DNA from: an uncultured Oscillospiraceae bacterium | Lineage (GTDB): Bacteria > Bacillota > Clostridia > Oscillospirales > Oscillospiraceae | NCBI GenBank assembly: GCA_947626905.1 | Contig: CANQUE010000003.1 | Coordinates: forward strand, 17,660-81,659 | DNA: 64,000 nucleotides | Direction of reading: 5' to 3' | In this document: piece after piece, positions 43,992-52,011 of the stretch | Numbering within the stretch: position 1 is the first letter of the stretch | Layout of the letters: each line of letters starts with the position of its first letter | Program-made: the position numbers and the translations under genes | Notes under the pieces: generated by a model | What the model was told of the DNA's origin: nothing | The model's input: only the letters and a program-made list of their open reading frames with translations | Database searches by the model: none

Positions 43992-44774
43992 ATGGATCTG
44001 TTTTTGACGCTGGCGTTTTTGTTTTTTATCGGTTCGGTATGCGGATGGGTGCTGGAGCTGTTTTTCCGGCGATTCATCTCCGCCGCCAATCCGGAGCGAA
44101 AATGGATCAACCCCGGCTTCTGCACGGGGCCCTATGTGCCGCTGTACGGCTTCGGCCTGTGCATCCTGTTTTTGATCGCCAGCCTGGAGGACACCGGCTG
44201 GATCTCCGATCCCTTTCTGGAAAAGGCCCTGCTGTTTTTGTGGATGGCGGTATGCATGACGGCCATCGAATATATCGCGGGAATTCTGATGATCCGGGTG
44301 GCCAAGGTGCGCCTGTGGGACTACAGCGACGAGTGGGGCAACATCCAGGGGATCATCTGTCCCAAGTTCTCTTTCTTCTGGGCCGTGTTGGGGGCGGCGT
44401 ATTACTTCCTCATCCACCCTCACATCCTGGGCGCCCTCCACTGGCTGGCCCAAAACCTGGCCTTCTCCTTTGTGATCGGCATGTTCTACGGGATATTCCT
44501 GATCGACCTGTGTCACTCCGTGAACCTCACGGCCAAGCTGAAGGCCTTCGCCGAGGAGAACGACGTGATCATCCGCTACGAGAACCTGAAGGCCCATCTG
44601 CGCTCCGTCCAGGAGCGCAGCGCCCAGAAGTACCGCTTCTTCCGGCCGTTCCACGGTCATATGCCTCTCACCGACCACCTGCGGGAGCGGATGGAGCAGA
44701 TGGAGCAGGCCATCCGGGAGGGAAAGGATCTGGTCTTCCTGCCCCGGCACACAAAAAATCGGCCCGGGAAATGA
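43992..44774 (+). CDS. polytopic membrane protein (putative ABC-transporter type IV / DUF1113-like)
   Basis: 260 aa; FFIGSVCGWVLELFFRRF...PGFCTGPYVPLYGFG... The family call is from memory. Confidence 0.6.
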   Translation: MDLFLTLAFLFFIGSVCGWVLELFFRRFISAANPERKWINPGFCTGPYVPLYGFGLCILFLIASLEDTGWISDPFLEKALLFLWMAVCMTAIEYIAGILMIRVAKVRLWDYSDEWGNIQGIICPKFSFFWAVLGAAYYFLIHPHILGALHWLAQNLAFSFVIGMFYGIFLIDLCHSVNLTAKLKAFAEENDVIIRYENLKAHLRSVQERSAQKYRFFRPFHGHMPLTDHLRERMEQMEQAIREGKDLVFLPRHTKNRPGK

Positions 44775-44782
44775 CCTTACCG

Positions 44783-44811
44783 CAAAAAAGAAACGCGCCT
44801 TTCGGCGCGTT
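44783..44811 (-). terminator. terminator downstream of the radical SAM operon
   Basis: Hairpin AACGCGCC-TTTC-GGCGCGTT, followed on the minus strand by CTTTTTTGCG. A second hairpin (GGCCGCCGGTCA...TGACCGGCGGCC) lies at 44833-44866. Confidence 0.6.
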
Positions 44812-44871
44812 CTCATAAGACAGCACGACATGCTGAGGCCGCCGGTCAACTCTGACCGGCGGCCTTCCATA

Positions 44872-46233
44872 TCATACCGGCGGATGCTCCGCTTTCCAGT
44901 CCTCAAATGTGGCCAGAATAATCCGCCGGAGCCGAAGACCCATCTCCGCCCGCTCGATGGGGGAGCAGCGTTCCGTGCGGGTCACGCACTCCTTCAGCCG
45001 GACGCACTGGGGATAGAGCAGGCACGTCTTGCAGACTTCCTCCGCCGGCCGGCGCTCCCGCCACCGGCGGAGCACCTGCTCGTCCCGGTCGTCGGAGAAC
45101 ACGCTGCCCCAGAGGCCCTTGTCGATGTGGGACTCGCACCGGCCCAGCCGGCCCTCCGGGGTGATGGTGGCGGCGTGCGGCGAGTCCGACCGGCAGGAAT
45201 AGAGCACCAGCTGCTGCTGCCGTTCCCACTCACTCGCTATACCCTTTTCGTCCAGATAGGCCCACATGGCCTGGGCCTTCTCCGCCAGGGAGAAGCGCTC
45301 CCCCTCCGTGTAGGCGGTTGGCTTCACGCCCTTATTCTCCACCAGCACCCGGCAGCGGACGCCGAAGCCGGGCCGCCCCCCGAACCGCTCCGCCAGCTGG
45401 TCTACCAGGGCGTACAGGTCCCCTTCGTTCTCCCCGTCCATGTTCAGGCGAGCCACGACCCGAATGCCCGCGTCCAGCAGCAGGCCGATGTTCCGGAGCA
45501 CCCGCTGGAAGGGACTGCCCTCCGGGTGGACATATGCCTTCCGCTGGTTATAGACCGCCTCCGTGCCGTCCAGGGTGATCTGGGCCAGTTCCAATTTCCA
45601 TCTGTCCTTAGCCCGCCGAACCATCGTCTCATCAAAGAGATAGCCGTTGGTAGTGATACTGGCATGGAACACCGTGCCCCGCTGCACCAGAACGTCCGTG
45701 ATGACGTCGATGGCCCGGGTGTTCACCAGGGGCTCCCCCCCGAACCAGAGCAAGTCCACCGGTTTCCCGCCGCAGTGGTCCGCGATATAGGCCCCCGCCG
45801 CCCGAGCGGTGTCCTCTGTCATGGTGATTTTTTTGATCCCCGCCTCAAAGCAGTAAAAGCACCGGGCGTTGCAGGCCGTGGTGGTGAAGATCATGTAGTC
45901 CGTCAGAGCGCCGTCATTTCTGTTCAGCTGCCAGGCGATCTGCCGCACCTGGTCCGCCAGGGCCATATCGTCCGTCCCCCGGGGCACAAGAAACCGCTTG
46001 GAAACAAGCGCCTCCAGGGCCGGGGAAACAGAGCCGGACAGGCCATCAAGCTCTTCCGCCTCTTCATAGCTTAGGCGCAGAAGCTCCCCGGTCAGGGTGT
46101 GGTACAGCAGCACCCACTCCGGCTGCTCCACCCGCAGACAGTGGGTGGTAAGCCGGTATGAGGTCCCCTCGCCCACTTTTTGTTGTCCCAGTATCTTTTG
46201 TGCCAAAACGATGGGCGGAACGATCTGCTCCAT
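44872..46233 (-). CDS. radical SAM/SPASM peptide maturase, paralogue 2
   Basis: 453 aa. CNARCFYC (CxxxCxxC). C-terminal 7-Cys SPASM-like pattern (C-x13-GRLGRC ... CKTCLLYPQCVRLKEC ... C). N-terminal about 100 aa are RRE-like. AAGGAG RBS. Confidence 0.85.
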   Translation of the reverse strand: MEQIVPPIVLAQKILGQQKVGEGTSYRLTTHCLRVEQPEWVLLYHTLTGELLRLSYEEAEELDGLSGSVSPALEALVSKRFLVPRGTDDMALADQVRQIAWQLNRNDGALTDYMIFTTTACNARCFYCFEAGIKKITMTEDTARAAGAYIADHCGGKPVDLLWFGGEPLVNTRAIDVITDVLVQRGTVFHASITTNGYLFDETMVRRAKDRWKLELAQITLDGTEAVYNQRKAYVHPEGSPFQRVLRNIGLLLDAGIRVVARLNMDGENEGDLYALVDQLAERFGGRPGFGVRCRVLVENKGVKPTAYTEGERFSLAEKAQAMWAYLDEKGIASEWERQQQLVLYSCRSDSPHAATITPEGRLGRCESHIDKGLWGSVFSDDRDEQVLRRWRERRPAEEVCKTCLLYPQCVRLKECVTRTERCSPIERAEMGLRLRRIILATFEDWKAEHPPV

Positions 46234-46262
46234 GTTCTTTTCTCCTTATATCGGGCCGCCGG

Positions 46263-47621
46263 TCAGACGTGACCGGCGGCTTTTTGCTCTTCGTAAGCCC
46301 CGAGAACGGCCCGGCGCAGCCTCTCCTCTCGGATCGAGCGCTCAATAGAAGAGCAGCATTCTGAATCCCTCGGGCATTTTTTGAGCCGCAGGCACTGGGG
46401 ATAGATGGGACAGGTCTTGCATCCCTCCCACGGCGCACAGCGTTCCTTCCACTGCCGGAGCACATTCTCGTCCGCCGCATCGGTATAAATGCTCCCCCAG
46501 ATGGCGCCGTCCTCACATGACGTGCATCGGCCCAGCCGCCCCTCCGGCGTGACGGTGGTGTATTTGCAGTCATCGGCAGAACAGGCATTGATCGTAAATC
46601 TGCGCTTCAGCGGCACCCGCTCCAGCAGCCCCTTGCTTTGAATATGGGCCAACAGCGCCATACGCTTTTGGACGTATGCGCGACGCTCCCCCTCCGTGTA
46701 GCTGTGGGGATCGCTTCCTGCATTTTCAAAAAGCACCGTAGCATAGATGCTAAAGCCCGGTTTCCCCCCGAATCGTTCCGCCAGCTCGTCAACAAGGGCG
46801 TACAGATCCCGCTCGTTATCCCTGTCCATGTTCAGACGCACTTTGACTTTGATACCCACATCCAGCAGCAGGTCGATGTTCCGCAGCACCCGCTGGAATG
46901 GACTGCCCTGGGGATGCACATATGCCTTGCGCTGGTTATAGACTTCCTCCGTGCCGTCCAGGGTGATCTGCACCTGCTCCAGGGCCCAGTCATCCTTTGC
47001 CCGGCCCGCCAGCGCCTCGTCAAAAAGATAGGCGTTGCTCGTCATCTCGGAGCGGAACGGCACACCCTGCTGGCGCAGGCTGTCGGTGATGATGTCGATA
47101 GCCCGAGCGTTCACCAGGGGCTCCCCCCCGAACCACTCCAAATGGACTGGCTTGCCGCCTCGGTGGGCCGCGATGTAGGCCGCCGTGTCCCGGGCGGTCT
47201 GCTCCGTCATGGAGCTTTTTTCCCAGCCCGTCTCGAAGCAGTAAAAACACCGGGCGTTGCAGTCCATGGTGGTTAAGATCCTGTATTTTGTCAGGGCAGT
47301 TTCTTTTTTCCCAAAGCGCGACCCGATTTGCAACACCTGATCCGCCAGGGCCATGTCGTCCGCGCCGTCGGGACGCAAAAACCACCGGGGGATCAACTCT
47401 TCCAGCGCCGGAGAAACGGGGCCAGGGAGCTTCTCCAAAAGCGCCGCCTCTTCATGGGACAGCAGGAGCAGCTCCCCGGTCAGGGTATGGTAAAGCAGGG
47501 CCCCCTCCGGCCGCCCTGCCCGCAGGCAGTGGGCGGTCAGCCGGTACGAGGCCCCCTCGTCTGTCTTTTGTTCCCCTAGTATTTTCTGGACGATAGAGAT
47601 CGGCGGAAGAACCTGATGCAT
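46263..47621 (-). CDS. radical SAM/SPASM peptide maturase, paralogue 1
   Basis: 452 aa. CNARCFYC. The C-terminal region has 11 Cys (CSADDCKYTTVTPEGRLGRCTSC...CAPWEGCKTCPIYPQCLRLKKCPRDSECC). GGGAGGG RBS. Confidence 0.85.
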   Translation of the reverse strand: MHQVLPPISIVQKILGEQKTDEGASYRLTAHCLRAGRPEGALLYHTLTGELLLLSHEEAALLEKLPGPVSPALEELIPRWFLRPDGADDMALADQVLQIGSRFGKKETALTKYRILTTMDCNARCFYCFETGWEKSSMTEQTARDTAAYIAAHRGGKPVHLEWFGGEPLVNARAIDIITDSLRQQGVPFRSEMTSNAYLFDEALAGRAKDDWALEQVQITLDGTEEVYNQRKAYVHPQGSPFQRVLRNIDLLLDVGIKVKVRLNMDRDNERDLYALVDELAERFGGKPGFSIYATVLFENAGSDPHSYTEGERRAYVQKRMALLAHIQSKGLLERVPLKRRFTINACSADDCKYTTVTPEGRLGRCTSCEDGAIWGSIYTDAADENVLRQWKERCAPWEGCKTCPIYPQCLRLKKCPRDSECCSSIERSIREERLRRAVLGAYEEQKAAGHV

Positions 47622-47697
47622 ATCGTACCCTCCCGTCTGTTATCTCTGTTATCGTTCAGGTCATGGGCTATTCGCGGCAGGGATATCCGAGGGCTCT

Positions 47698-47796
47698 TTA
47701 TCTATTAGCTTCTGTGCATATGCCGCTGGCAAAAATGATGTCATCCGCGTCGATCTCTATGATCTCAATCACGGGGCTCTCATAGGTTTCCTTCAT
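47698..47796 (-). CDS. candidate 32-aa RiPP precursor peptide
   Basis: ATG 47796 sits 8 nt after GGGAGG. Translation MKETYESPVIEIIEIDADDIIFASGICTEANR, ending 77 nt upstream of maturase 1. An acidic, beta-prone leader-like N-terminus and a single Cys near the C-terminus. The longer track ORF 47698-47943 is an upstream extension without an RBS. Confidence 0.6.
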   Translation of the reverse strand: MKETYESPVIEIIEIDADDIIFASGICTEANR

Positions 47797-48075
47797 GGTC
47801 TTTTCCTCCCTTGCTATGATCAGACTTTTTCTTGTACAGACGGACGCTCTTCCATGGTCCCCCCTGCGCCGTCCCCCAGACGGCGCGTGGGCACAAAAGC
47901 AGAAAATCGTCACCAGCCAGATGGCAAAGAAGTTCGAGCCCAAGCGTCAAAATGCTATTGCATTTTGGCCTGTGATTTGCTATAATTACTTCACTATTTG
48001 ATGCGATCCAACGGTTTTTTGCATGTAAGCTGTCTGGGGACGAGCCTCTACTTTTTTCTCCAGACATATCTTTTT

Positions 48076-48124
48076 AACAACAGACAGCGGATGGTGCTAA
48101 AATGCACCATCCGCTGTCTGTTGT
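48076..48124. terminator. long perfect hairpin separating the RNA-repair-like operon from the RiPP locus
   Basis: AACAACAGACAGCGGATGGTGC-TAAAA-TGCACCATCCGCTGTCTGTTGTT. Confidence 0.65.
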
Positions 48125-48233
48125 TCGATCCCGATCCCGTAAGGCGGCTGCCGACTGTATCATCCGTGGACCGCCAGTCCGCTGTCGGGGCAATAAATAA
48201 GCGGCGGGTCCTGCCTCCGGACGGGACCCGCTC

Positions 48234-49323
48234 TTATACACTTATCCAGCGAACTTCCTCCGCCTCGGTGAGAAGCGGCGGCTCAAGGCTCCGCAGCATC
48301 CGGGCCACGACGCTCTCCGGCACGCTGTCCCGCCGGGACAGGTTCCGACGGCAGCGCTCCTCCCAGCCGGTCTCCAGGTACTCTATCCGCACCGCCGCGC
48401 CGTAGCGGTGGAAGAGGTCTGTCCACCGGCCCCGGTTGGCCGCAGACAGGTTGGTGGCGTTGAAGACGAAGGGCCGCCGCTCCCGCAGGAGCGCACGGGC
48501 CTGCTCCCTGGCCCGGCGTATCACCGCGCCTCCCCCGTCGTCGGGGGCGGCTCCCAGCTCCCGGCGCACCTGGTCCAGAGAGACCATGGGCAGGCCGCCG
48601 TAATGGGCGGCGATGTACGTGTCCTTGCCCGTGCCGGGCAGACCGCTCACCATGACCACCGTGCCCCAGGCGGCATCGTAGACCTTCTGACCGGGTACCA
48701 CAGCTTTGCCGGTCATATCCGCCCAGCGGCTGGGGGCGTCAGGATAGGGAAACGGCCCCCGCAGACAGCCGGCTTCCTCCGCCAAGGCGCGGAACAGCGC
48801 CACGTCCTCCAGCCGCTCCGCCCGGTCGGGGCAGATCCGGCCCCGGATGTCCGCCTCGGCCAGCACCGCCAATTTCTCCAGCGTGAAAGCCGATGTCAGC
48901 CCCCCCGCCGACGCCATCTGCCGCAGGAACCGGGCCGGGTCGTCCCTCTCAAAGATATGCAAGGGCCGCATGTGCCAACGTACAAGCAGGCAGACCGCCT
49001 CCCGCAGACATATGGCCTCCGGCGTGCCGGCCAGGCCCAGCCCGGTCATCAGTTTTTCCCGTGCCATCTTCGCGCCGGCGGCGCAGTGGCCGGGAGCGGT
49101 CCACCGGCCGTCCTCCCACACGGTGCACCGAGCCTTGCCCAGGTCGTGGAGAAGCCCGGCGGCCAGCAGCATCTGCTGGTCGTTCCGATCCAGCGCGAGG
49201 AACGACGGCTGCTCCGCCATGCTCGCCGCCACCAGCCGGGTATGGGCCAGCGCGTCCCCCTCCCCGTGCCAGACCGGGTCCTGCCGCACGCCCGCCAGGT
49301 CTGCCAGGACCGGCTCCAAAGCC

Positions 49324-49352
<29 letters not shown>
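48234..49352 (-). CDS. HD-domain phosphohydrolase fused to a P-loop polynucleotide-kinase-like domain
   Basis: 372 aa. HD motifs GDALAHT ... GLLHDLGK. The C-terminal half has Walker A VSGLPGTGKDT and ...FVFNATNLS..., as in T4 Pnk-like kinases. Track start is TTG 49352; the alternative is ATG 49337. Overlaps the ligase stop. Confidence 0.8.
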
Positions 49353-50133
<781 letters not shown>

Positions 50134-50135
50134 GG

Positions 50136-50900
50136 CTATGCCTCCTCGCCTATGGCGGCTATAAGGGTGAGATGGCCCGGTACGCCGCCGAAATGCAGCC
50201 GGTCGCACCCGGCGTTTTGGAAAAGCTCCGTCAGCACCTGCTTGGTGAGCAGGTGGATGTGCTCTGGGTTATCGTCCTCTTTGCTGGGTACCGTCACGGC
50301 CACATACCGCCGGGCGATGCGCACCGCCGCCGTCACGGCGGCCTGCACGTCCGGGATGTGCTCCAGCACCTCCAGCATGGTCACCACGTCCACGCTCTTC
50401 TCCGGCGCCGGCCAGGCGCAGATGTCCGCCCGCAGGGCCGTGAGCCGGTCCACGCCGCCCCGGCGGATGTCCTCTAAAAAATCCACCCGGTGATCCAGCA
50501 GGTCCAGGCTGGTCACCGGCGTCCCGGGAAAGGCGTCCAGAAACGGAAAGAGAAACACGCCCCGGCCGCTGCCCACGTCCAGAAGGCTCTCCGGCTGGAC
50601 GGCCCGGAAAAAGCCCAATATCTGCTTTACCCGCGGCATGTCCTCATGGCCCCGCTTGAAGCGGTAGAGCTTCACGCCCCAGGCGCGCCCCATATCCAGC
50701 AGGGCCGCGACGTCCTGCTCCGTCAGCGCCTCCAGGGGCTTGGACCCCAGTGCCGGGGGAAGGGCCCTCCCCTCCCGGGCGGCAAAGCCCCGCACCGCCG
50801 CCGCGGCCAGGCGCTCATACATCCCGCCCTGTGTCACCATCCCTCTTCCTCCGCAGCTGGGCAGCAGGGCTCCCTCGTTTGCAAACGCCTTTTTAAACAT
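50136..50900 (-). CDS. class I SAM-dependent methyltransferase
   Basis: 254 aa. Motif I LLDVGSGRGVF. Later DVVTMLEVLEHIPD. The start overlaps the upstream stop (ATGTTTAA). Confidence 0.8.
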   Translation of the reverse strand: MFKKAFANEGALLPSCGGRGMVTQGGMYERLAAAAVRGFAAREGRALPPALGSKPLEALTEQDVAALLDMGRAWGVKLYRFKRGHEDMPRVKQILGFFRAVQPESLLDVGSGRGVFLFPFLDAFPGTPVTSLDLLDHRVDFLEDIRRGGVDRLTALRADICAWPAPEKSVDVVTMLEVLEHIPDVQAAVTAAVRIARRYVAVTVPSKEDDNPEHIHLLTKQVLTELFQNAGCDRLHFGGVPGHLTLIAAIGEEA

Positions 50901-52011
50901 CGGCCCTTCCCTCCGGCCGGTAGGTCATGGCGATATACTTGCTCTCCCATACCGGGTCGCACCGGTCCTCGTCGTCCACCTGGCAGTCCTTCCACAGGTC
51001 CTCCGCCACCTCTTCGATCACGTCCCGCAGCTCCAGCTTGTCCAAGTACTTTTGCGGGATGGCGCCATAGCCCAGGGCGGCGCCCAGGATGTTCCCGGTC
51101 AGCGAGCCGGTGGAGTCGCTGTCGCCGTCGTGGTTCACCGCGGCGACCACGCCCTTTTCAAAATCGTCGGCGTATCTCATCGCGCAGTATACGGCGATGG
51201 CCAGGGCCTCGTCCCCCACCCAGCCCTCGCCCAGCCGGCGGATGGCAGTCAGATCGTCCGTGTCCGATCCGGCCAGGTCCGCCGCCTCTCCGATCAGGGC
51301 CAGCAGCTGGTCCAGATGCCTGGCCCGCGGAAAAACAGCCGGCATGGCCGCCATGGCGTCCCGGACCGCCGCCGGGACCGTGTCGCCATGGCCGGCTATC
51401 CGGGAGATGATGTGGGCCAACATGGCCGCGGGGAGATACCCCAGCTCATGGCCGTGGGTCAGCACCGCCGCCTTGGCTCCGATGCGGTCGATCTCCCCCT
51501 GGGTGCAGGGCCGGTCGTTGAAGTACAGGCCGATGGGTGCGGCCCGCATGACGCCGCCGCAGCCCCGGCTGTGGTTCAGGGGCGCATCCAAGGTGCCGTT
51601 CCCGCCCGCCGCCAGGGCGGACATGCAGGTATTTCCCGGCGCCCGGAGGCTGAACAGCCCGGGCACGTTCACCAGCCAGGAGAAGTGATGCCCCTTCGGC
51701 AGGGGATACCGCTCCGTCTGGGTCCTGTACCAGTCCAGATAGCTGGACATGATGTAGTCCTCATAGCCGCCCATGATGCCCCGGGTCATCCCCCGGGTGG
51801 AGCCCAAGAGCAGACCCGTGGCGGTGAACAGGGTCATCTGGGTGTCGTCGGATATCTCCGCCACGCCGCGGCGGAGCGCATACTCCCGTATCCCGCCCCG
51901 GCCGTATTTCTGAAATATGGCGGCAGCGGGCATGAATTCCACCGGATAGCCCAGGGCGTCCCCCACCGCGCCGCCCACCAGACAGCCCTTGAATCTGTTC
52001 AGCTCACGCAT
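50893..52011 (-). CDS. ADP-ribosylglycohydrolase family protein
   Basis: 372 aa. GCLVGGAVGDALGYPVEF...ISDDTQMTL...NHDGDSDSTGSLTGNILGA are the two metal-binding signatures of the DraG/ARH family. GAGGAGG RBS. Confidence 0.85.
   Translation of the reverse strand: MRELNRFKGCLVGGAVGDALGYPVEFMPAAAIFQKYGRGGIREYALRRGVAEISDDTQMTLFTATGLLLGSTRGMTRGIMGGYEDYIMSSYLDWYRTQTERYPLPKGHHFSWLVNVPGLFSLRAPGNTCMSALAAGGNGTLDAPLNHSRGCGGVMRAAPIGLYFNDRPCTQGEIDRIGAKAAVLTHGHELGYLPAAMLAHIISRIAGHGDTVPAAVRDAMAAMPAVFPRARHLDQLLALIGEAADLAGSDTDDLTAIRRLGEGWVGDEALAIAVYCAMRYADDFEKGVVAAVNHDGDSDSTGSLTGNILGAALGYGAIPQKYLDKLELRDVIEEVAEDLWKDCQVDDEDRCDPVWESKYIAMTYRPEGRADV

Follow-up and report, generated by a model that had tools for sequence, protein, structure and literature searches.

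On the minus strand of a 64-kb stretch of DNA from an uncultured Oscillospiraceae bacterium (contig CANQUE010000003.1; the whole stretch of 64,000 nucleotides is referred to here as the window), positions 44872–47796 hold an operon of three intact open reading frames (ORFs) with strong ribosome-binding sites. They encode a peptide of 32 amino acids and two radical S-adenosylmethionine (SAM) enzymes of 452 and 453 amino acids with cysteine-rich, SPASM-type C-termini, and the locus is very probably an operon for a peptide that is made by the ribosome and modified after translation (RiPP). Between a long upstream hairpin and the precursor gene lies an invertible DNA segment carrying a predicted promoter (47904–48046), an element that was not part of the original prediction, which had been made from the letters of this stretch by themselves. 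Taken together, the evidence makes it probable that these genes form a small satellite operon, belonging to an uncharacterized RiPP family of gut and rumen Clostridia and Bacteroidales, with phase-variable expression. The genes of the operon are arranged as follows.

47796 (ATG) to 47698 (stop), minus strand: precursor peptide gene, 32 amino acids, MKETYESPVIEIIEIDADDIIFASGICTEANR, recognized by its ORF, ribosome-binding site, conserved family and codon pattern.
47805–47810, minus strand: Shine-Dalgarno sequence GGGAGG, 8 nt ahead of the precursor ATG, read directly from the sequence.
46263–47621, minus strand: clade-A radical SAM/SPASM maturase (rSAM-1), 452 amino acids.
44872–46233, minus strand: clade-B radical SAM/SPASM maturase (rSAM-2), 453 amino acids.

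The precursor ORF, its start codon and its ribosome-binding site stand where the original prediction had placed them, and the gap between the precursor gene and rSAM-1, previously counted as 77 nt, is 76 nt. A further 29 nt separate the two maturase genes.

Comparative sequence evidence indicates that the short ORF is a genuine, conserved precursor. A profile search of a 5.8-billion-protein collection identified 85 peptides, 84 of which fall within a close ‘DIIFAS’ subfamily, and the family is characterized by the leader pattern MKExYxxPxxEIxxIDxxDIIFAS followed by a hypervariable core. When a leader hidden Markov model was iterated over 84 fetched loci carrying homologues of the enzymes, a precursor gene was found beside the enzyme in approximately 55 of them, located just upstream and encoding the same leader with a differing C-terminus. 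Conservation of the short ORF next to homologous maturases was a check named when the locus was first described, and it held in loci spanning Oscillospiraceae, Lachnospiraceae and Ruminococcus, as well as Prevotella and other Bacteroidales. Divergence per site among 15 distinct leader DNA sequences was 0.17, 0.18 and 0.41 at the first, second and third codon positions, respectively, and AGC, AGT and TCT all serve as codons for the invariant Ser24; the codon-position pattern and the varied serine codons argue for selection on a protein rather than for a chance ORF. Family conservation ends right after DIIFAS, which divides the window peptide into a 24-residue leader, MKETYESPVIEIIEIDADDIIFAS, and an 8-residue core, GICTEANR (containing Cys27, Thr28 and Glu29), and the core proposed earlier begins exactly at this boundary. 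Gene calls for the identical 32-residue peptide exist on 10 independent metagenome contigs; the peptide has no match in NCBIfam or Pfam.

The two maturases are indeed paralogues, as had been proposed, with 60% identity over 448 residues and no gaps in the alignment. Both contain the sequence CNARCFYC, which conforms to the radical SAM motif CxxxCxxC, and both score above the cut-off of the Pfam Radical_SAM model. The three cysteines of this motif (C121, C125 and C128) are invariant in 32 aligned homologues and in both of the clades described below. The same alignment revealed six invariant C-terminal cysteines, C347, C366, C401, C404, C410 and C416, and a nearly invariant seventh, C423, which is replaced by Gly in one clade-A sequence (L002_r1). 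These residues form a seven-cysteine SPASM arrangement in both clades (C347-x18-C366 ... C401-x2-C404-x5-C410-x5-C416-x6-C423) and bear out the SPASM-type C-terminus that had been read from the sequence, with a CX5C spacing in place of the textbook CX3C. The Pfam SPASM model itself makes no call on either maturase, for which Pfam reports only Radical_SAM and Fer4_12. Homologous stretches are present in at least 517 cases among species-representative genomes, from Oscillospiraceae to Prevotella.

Placement of the enzymes among curated families led to RiPP maturases, the outcome on which the earlier reading had been made to depend. The best NCBIfam models for both proteins are TIGR04463, geopeptide, CefB, FlmE/OhkG, Clo7bot and PapB; models for heme and molybdenum-cofactor radical SAM enzymes match weakly. 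TIGR04463 (rSAM_vs_C_rich), the top curated model, covers residues 38–411, almost the whole length, and reaches 146 and 133 bits where the cut-off is 525, the PapB family model NF047865 scores 71 and 70 bits against 340, and the SCIFF maturase model TIGR03974 scores 40 and 35 bits against 425. Since all curated scores lie far below their cut-offs, the maturases belong to no named family, and they are distant relatives of the TIGR04463 family rather than members of it. Among solved structures, CteB is nearest in sequence (E 3e-20, family profile). An AlphaFold model of rSAM-1, with a predicted local distance difference test score (pLDDT) of 89, likewise has CteB as its top Foldseek match over the full length, followed by TigE, SuiB and SkfB, with the anaerobic sulfatase-maturating enzyme (anSME) appearing at rank 10.

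The N-terminal region of approximately 105 residues of rSAM-1, modeled alone (pLDDT 94), has a β3-α3 layout, with strands at residues 32–37, 40–45 and 51–54 and helices at 56–62, 71–76 and 89–104. Its fold matches, each of them weak, are mostly RiPP recognition elements (RREs), namely those of TbiB1, lasso B1, ThcOx, SuiB, PbtF, CteB, PqqD, MccB and LynD, and at the level of the modeled fold this domain may be read as RRE-like. An RRE-like domain may also be expected in the clade-B enzyme, judging from its identity to rSAM-1, the enzyme that was modeled. The original description of this region as PqqD-like stands at the level of fold and fails at the level of sequence, where alignment by hhalign with the stand-alone PqqD proteins of the family gave a probability of 1%.

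Most distant relatives of these enzymes occur as one enzyme per locus, and members of the close clade (at least 55% identity) occur as two or three in tandem. A neighbor-joining tree resolved two old clades, A, which is always encoded first and includes rSAM-1, and B, which is always encoded last and includes rSAM-2. With two old clades in a fixed A–B order, one precursor with two maturases is the normal condition in this subfamily, and the view that this combination is unusual is not upheld. Both clades keep every Fe-S cluster cysteine and differ at a few fixed positions. Position 369, three residues past the auxiliary-cluster ligand C366, is Cys in 11 of 15 clade-A sequences, including rSAM-1 of the window, and His in all 10 clade-B sequences, where it forms part of a very uniform signature, SCW..NAAT-ITPEGRLGRCESHIDKG (His369). 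The complete cluster L010 carries clade A alone, which would probably make A the core enzyme, with B joined to it as a partner. By analogy with the two maturases of thuricin CD, B would probably serve as a partner or a second-step enzyme; TrnC and TrnD work only as a tight complex, in which only the radical activity of TrnC is essential (PMC12093266).

Upstream of the operon, the control region has the following elements.

47904–48046, no strand assigned: invertible, promoter-bearing segment of 143 bp, delimited by in-silico flips and alignments.
47891–47920, plus strand: gene-proximal inverted repeat, GCACAAAAGCAGAAAATCGTCACCAGCCAG; its outer 9 bp, AAAAGCAGA (47895–47903), hold the crossover.
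48030–48059, minus strand: gene-distal inverted repeat, AGAAAAAAGTAGAGGCTCGTCCCCAGACAG on this strand; its outer 9 bp lie at 48047–48055 (TCTACTTTT).
47958–47986, plus strand: predicted promoter in the switch, consisting of -35 TTGCAT (47958–47963), a 17-nt spacer and an extended -10, TGcTATAAT (47978–47986).
47797–47890, minus strand: conserved 5′ untranslated leader with a GC hairpin, GCGCCGTC-tgggg-GACGGCGC (47867–47887).

The segment combines inverted repeats with a promoter, as an inverton does. The repeats are imperfect, matching at 20 of 29 positions in our own reading and at 8 of 9 in the outer 9 bp, and the position of the crossover was deduced from pairs of contigs in the OFF and ON orientations. 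In the window copy the switch promoter is directed away from the minus-strand operon, and no comparable promoter facing the operon genes was found. The promoter elements are kept in the diverged switches of the related loci L002, L004 and L006 (in L008, as TGCTATAAT), with differing spacers. The 5′ leader is nearly identical in the window, L002, L093 and L095–L098, whereas the proteins encoded downstream in L002 are only 64–66% identical to those of the window.

Alignment of contigs revealed the segment in both orientations. Approximately 120 nt of the window and the counterpart in L002 are exact reverse complements of each other, and the outer flanks of the two are collinear. Six of the contigs encoding the identical peptide have the window orientation (OFF), which was recorded for the window, L089 and L098, the three in which the same distal flank was shown, and for L090, L091 and L094. 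The opposite orientation (ON) was found in L095, which has the same distal flank and 5′ leader as the window locus and a flipped segment, and in L092 and L097, whose contigs start inside the flipped segment. Flipping the 143 bp in silico made the window match the ON contig L092 at 259 of 259 positions, and flipping the equivalent 144 bp of L098 reproduced L095 at 566 of 566. Both orientations are found at the same locus, in different samples, and there is little doubt that the 143-bp segment is invertible. Several contigs end inside the segment, which suggests mixed populations. As the promoter is directed away from it, the operon would be OFF in this copy, and it is likely that the two orientations do correspond to ON and OFF states and that the operon is phase-variable.

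Similar switches accompany related loci. Repeat-flanked segments with 107–121 nt between the repeat arms are present in L004, L008, L010 and L088; an extended -10 promoter is found in the switches of L004 and L008, and the promoter calls in L010 and L088 are weak or ambiguous. In L004 and L008 the switch has the cluster on one side and, on the other, the gene of a small serine recombinase (PF00239), which in L004 is of a 221-residue type. A homologous recombinase gene lies nearby in L010 and L088, and L005 also has one beside its cluster. A search confined to homologues of the serine recombinases of the family found none in the 64-kb window, so that the switch would have to be flipped in trans. 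The repeat motif AAAAGTAGAGG.TCGTC has only two copies in the window and no match in a viral contig collection. The L088-type complete cluster has two tandem switches, both of which are flipped in L101 (sample DRR855150).

Further details of these switches are recorded here as separate observations. In L088 (4759–5193, compared with L101 from Logan DRR855150), the two tandem segments lie between the serine recombinase gene and an ScmC-like gene; both are inverted in the one sample relative to five others, and several contigs stop exactly at the first repeat. The left repeat of L004 (GAAAAAAGTAGAGG) equals the distal repeat of the window and in L004 encodes the C-terminus of the serine recombinase, GEKSRG. 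At 2552–2702 of that locus the reading frame of the recombinase continues across the left repeat and enters the segment, so that flipping would alter its C-terminal tail; in the window (48030–48067) the repeat reading GEKSRG is kept and the recombinase gene is missing, as though lost by deletion. In L096 (1–440; ENA ERZ27249266) the switch lies between two divergent precursor genes, one encoding the core GICTEANR and the other a peptide beginning MKEEYEPPVMEIVEIDEEDIIFASGC..., which matches P0138 (core GCTGNNAAEC); with the promoter between divergent precursors, inversion would swap which operon is expressed. The leader and repeats of the window (47797–47920) and of L002 (4124–4248) are near-identical, yet the maturases are 64–66% identical and the cores differ; strong constraint on the switch or exchange between loci could be the cause of these near-identical control regions. 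The precursor with the core GICTEANR also occurs, identical, in another genomic context (L093, 291–1026, compared with L002, 3612–4362), beside a divergent SpoIIID gene and with the switch ON, from which it follows that the cassette has moved between sites or strains. A riboswitch or attenuator in the 5′ leader was considered and rejected, as folding of the ON-state leader gave z = -0.55 relative to shuffled sequences and no Rfam family matched; an Rfam scan of 44500–48400 returned only a chance match of a microRNA model to the 22-bp hairpin described below.

Complete clusters of the family have the gene order ScmC-like HPr-kinase-related protein, PqqD, S26-type peptidase, one to three precursors, two or three radical SAM enzymes, NTP_transf_5 and ATP-binding cassette (ABC) exporter, the S26-like peptidase being a protein of approximately 150 residues with the motif GxSMxP. 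No homologue of the ScmC-like kinase, PqqD, S26-like peptidase, NTP_transf_5 protein or ABC exporter of the related clusters was found anywhere in the 64 kb, which extends to the whole window the original remark that the operon has no protease or transporter gene. The absence of these accessory genes marks the window locus as a satellite, and satellite status explains why no protease, transporter or immunity gene lies in the operon. Other stripped loci are L002, L008 and L009, and there are single metagenome-assembled genomes (MAGs) that have a stripped locus in addition to a complete one (L007 plus L009 in one case, L006 plus L008 in another). Removal of the leader and export of the peptide would accordingly be supplied in trans by genes outside the window. 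Some of the complete clusters adjoin genes for a MobA/MobL relaxase and a large serine recombinase (L088, 13105–15359; L004, 1959–2624), neighbors that suggest carriage on a mobilizable element.

Clues to the chemistry came from 82 distinct cores of the close subfamily. Their length is 5–24 residues, with a median of 11; they are acidic, and Gly, Glu and Cys abound in them. All 82 contain Glu, the only invariant core residue, and 72 contain Cys. In 66 of the cores the final Glu stands no more than two residues from the C-terminus, and in 67 the residue before it is Ala, Gly or Pro. The pattern C-x(0-4)-E was found in 56 cores, compared with 44.7 ± 3.8 in shuffled sequences, and Cys27 and Glu29 of the window peptide fit it. 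Thr, Glu and Asn had been named earlier as candidate acceptors for a crosslink to the cysteine; among them Glu29 is favored, since Glu is the residue invariant in all 82 cores. Analogy with the nearest enzymes, together with the core pattern, makes a Cys27–Glu29 thioether closing a small ring the leading guess for the product, and a tentative one. The number of maturases showed no consistent relation to the number of core cysteines across the loci compared. The Cys-free cores belong to the peptides P0144, P0152, P0173, P0183, P0189, P0193, P0199, P0201, P0202 and P0203, and adjoin two or three radical SAM genes wherever their context is known.

A working model for the preferred reading, a phase-variable satellite RiPP operon, can be outlined from these elements. 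A serine invertase encoded elsewhere would flip the switch, related loci having a recombinase beside a switch with the same repeat motif. In the ON state, the leader of the precursor would dock on the RRE-like domains of the maturases, which would take a hydrogen atom from the core and close a small ring, most likely the thioether between Cys27 and Glu29. The clade-B enzyme might act with the clade-A enzyme in a complex, as TrnD does with TrnC, or might carry out a second step, and an S26-like peptidase and an ABC exporter encoded outside the window would remove the leader and export the peptide.

Several observations weigh against this model. The fold matches of the N-terminal domain are weak (E 0.013–0.9; template modeling score 0.35–0.47), and the domain has no sequence similarity to PqqD in Pfam at E ≤ 1. 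The switch promoter is a predicted element, the -35 of which matches at 3 of 6 positions, and for this reason it is missed by a consensus scan. The differences in orientation are between samples rather than between reads of one sample, and function in trans is assumed, as the 64 kb contain no invertase, peptidase or exporter. The enrichment of C-x(0-4)-E is modest, 10 of the 82 cores have no Cys (e.g., AGEPE, ADEPE, GDFEPE, GGSEGYE, GVEAEGV and GGGDMQAEH), and the reading of the chemistry is, as a whole, a prediction. The ten Cys-free cores imply that a Cys thioether is not the universal modification of the family, and membership among the sactipeptides or ranthipeptides cannot be assumed family-wide. 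They also bear on a serious alternative, regarded here as rather unlikely, in which Glu and not Cys is the true target and at least one of the enzymes carries out a Cys-independent reaction on or next to Glu29. Such a reaction might be a C–C or C–O crosslink, an epimerization, or a change to the backbone or a side chain, and A and B would then differ in chemistry instead of sharing one thioether. The universal presence of Glu fits this alternative, as do the two or three maturases kept at loci with Cys-less cores (L014 has only a Cys-less core, and L087 has one plus a second, untranslated precursor gene), the difference between the clades at position 369, described above, close to a ligand of an auxiliary cluster, and the single Cys that the window core offers to two enzymes. 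The thioether is favored in turn by the presence of Cys in 72 of the 82 cores and the enrichment of C-x(0-4)-E, and by the nearest characterized relatives (CteB, PapB and SCIFF-type enzymes), all of which make Cys thioethers; moreover, A and B share 60% identity and the same set of cysteines, and close paralogues usually share their chemistry.

Other alternatives concern the state of the locus and the identity of its enzymes. The absence of the five accessory genes and the serine recombinase from the 64 kb, the orientation of the promoter and the resemblance of the distal repeat to a leftover recombinase 3′ end could describe a decaying or silent remnant that is locked OFF and makes no product. 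We consider this improbable in view of three intact ORFs with good ribosome-binding sites, the retention of every catalytic cysteine, and the identical precursor in 10 contigs of different samples, some of them ON at the same locus, which implies that an invertase is still acting on the switch; other MAGs, besides, keep stripped loci beside complete ones. Little credence is likewise given to the possibility that the two orientations are fixed strain differences or assembly artifacts without active switching. Each orientation does come from a different metagenome assembly rather than from the reads of a single sample, and the window has no invertase gene, but the flanks are identical on both sides, the inversion is base-exact, and repeats of 9–30 bp are too short to confuse an assembler. 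Contigs ending inside the segment are expected for mixed orientations, and the same architecture recurs beside serine recombinases, with the two tandem switches of a related cluster found in both states. That the enzymes might be SPASM proteins of another type, anaerobic sulfatase-maturase-like or involved in cofactor biosynthesis, with the small ORF an incidental neighbor, is extremely unlikely. The anSME structures do appear in the fold list at rank 10 and below, and the weak matches to heme and molybdenum-cofactor models point the same way, but the small ORF is conserved and co-located with the enzymes across the family, complete clusters hold a PqqD protein, a peptidase and an ABC exporter, and both the sequence comparison and the full-length structural comparison put RiPP maturases first, proteins with a recognition domain at the N-terminus that has no counterpart in anSME.

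A bolder extension of the phase-variable satellite reading, which we think unlikely as a whole, is that gut Clostridia run a phase-variable, multi-locus system in which one serine invertase of a complete, mobile cluster flips matching promoters at several satellite loci, so that clonal cells would express differing tiny acidic peptides of a hypervariable set. The A/B pair would in that case install an undescribed Glu-centered crosslink even in Cys-free cores, and in some strains one promoter would toggle between two divergent precursors.

Among characterized systems, the maturases most resemble those of the CteB/SCIFF and PapB types, with which they share the combination of an N-terminal domain, read here as RRE-like, a radical SAM core and a SPASM domain with two auxiliary clusters, encoded next to a short Cys-containing precursor; CteB is the best match to a solved structure both by sequence and by full-length fold. 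PapB joins Cys to acidic residues (Asp, or Glu where this is substituted), and this linkage resembles the C-x(1-4)-E pattern of the window family. Neither the leader nor the core of the window family is related to those of the SCIFF and freyrasin precursors; the cores are tiny and some are Cys-free, and there are two specialized paralogues instead of one enzyme. Thuricin CD (TrnC/TrnD) and ruminococcin C (RumMC1/MC2) share with the window the encoding of two SPASM maturases together, and TrnC/TrnD provides the working model for A and B. Thuricin CD has two, and ruminococcin C five, long multi-Cys precursors, whereas the window has one 8-residue core with one Cys, and no sequence-family relationship with either system was detected. 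We know of no report of an invertible promoter in thuricin CD or ruminococcin C.

At the level of the whole system, the closest analogue is the SynChlorMet cassette (ScmC/ScmE/ScmF), which is likewise uncharacterized. The complete relatives resemble it in having an ScmC-like HPr-kinase-related protein (Pfam PF27840; TIGR04249 at E 1.6e-6, score 27.7 against a cut-off of 125), a PqqD protein and at least two radical SAM/SPASM enzymes; the window differs in having only a precursor and two radical SAM genes, and the match of ScmE to the window enzyme is weak (E 3.7e-9, 35.9 against a cut-off of 400). Streptosactin offers a fainter parallel, a short leader ahead of a Cys core modified by a radical SAM enzyme. 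When six distant family peptides were compared with curated libraries, the only match was a weak one to StsA (NF045558), made by the distant family leader KPEMEKIEFDAEDIITTSC with E 0.037 and a score of 14, the cut-off being 42; for the window peptide itself there was no match, and no streptosactin-type model is among the top families of the maturases. The switch resembles gut invertons and Hin/Gin-type switches in being a short promoter segment between inverted repeats that is found in both orientations, with serine recombinases beside related copies. In working without a local invertase it presumably resembles the targets of globally acting invertases, such as Mpi in Bacteroides fragilis. 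It differs from known invertons in having a RiPP operon, not surface structures, as its cargo and, in L096, in lying between two divergent precursors.

The class of chemistry is a familiar one; what is unfamiliar is the fixed A/B pair, the Glu-anchored micro-cores, the satellite organization and control by DNA inversion. Literature searches, incomplete in their coverage, turned up neither an account of the family nor a RiPP or radical SAM cluster governed by an inverton, and an earlier description may exist. Among the RiPPs predicted in gut microbiomes, clusters for radical SAM-modified peptides are the most numerous, and few of their products are known. The locus defines a widespread family outside every curated model, with paired specialized maturases, cores of as few as five residues with a near-C-terminal Glu, and invertible promoters among its oddities. 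If the switch works as proposed, the secreted modified peptide would be a bet-hedging trait, the silence of such clusters in culture and in heterologous surveys would be explained, and locking the promoter ON would offer a simple handle for activation. The existence of satellite and complete arrangements implies that ‘minimal’ RiPP loci may need genes located elsewhere in the genome. The enzyme class by itself is routine for genome mining; it is the phase-variable control and the core rule that make the locus a good experimental target, and the Cys-free cores provide the best natural test of the requirement for Cys.

The operon and its control region are bounded and interrupted by hairpins.

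46254–46283, minus strand: hairpin GCCGCCGGTCAcgtcTGACCGGCGGC across the stop codon of the clade-A gene.
44781–44866, minus strand: end of the operon, comprising a hairpin copy GCCGCCGGTCA...TGACCGGCGGC (44837–44866) followed by a canonical intrinsic terminator (stem 44812–44791 plus T-run).
48076–48125, no strand assigned: hairpin with a perfect 22-bp stem and no U-tract, at the far edge of the locus.

Terminators had been proposed on both sides of the operon. The downstream one is canonical, whereas the upstream 22-bp hairpin has no U-tract on either strand and was not called in a terminator scan. The latter hairpin is the distal flank common to the same-locus contigs L095 and L098. As the first structure that transcripts from the OFF-oriented promoter would reach, it is likely to act as an insulator or terminator. 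The hairpin at the end of the clade-A gene, which spans the stop codon and is more conserved than the coding DNA around it, recurs in L001, L006, L012, L014 and L015, among others, with the pattern GCCGGTCA-nnnn-TGACCGGC(GGC), and in many loci it stands directly 5′ of the ribosome-binding site of the next gene. The second copy in the window, 3′ of the clade-B gene (44837–44866), is 83% identical to the copy at 46254–46283.

On one side the operon is flanked by a gene for an AAA_33-domain protein; its neighbors on the opposite side encode a membrane protein resembling CmpB and a cardiolipin synthase. Composition was considered as a sign of recent transfer and set aside, the differences being too mild (GC content 56–67% in the operon, 63–70% in the flanks and approximately 50% in the switch region). 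The upstream neighbors on the minus strand (48234–52011) resemble an RNA-repair-type set. They comprise a kinase-like AAA_33 protein whose N-terminal part is HD-like (48234–49352), of which only AAA_33 was called by a search tool, a protein with the KxDG ligase-type motif EEKCDGAN (49324–50208), a methyltransferase-like ORF (50136–50900) and an ADP-ribosylglycohydrolase-like ORF (50893–52011), the last three being read from their translations.

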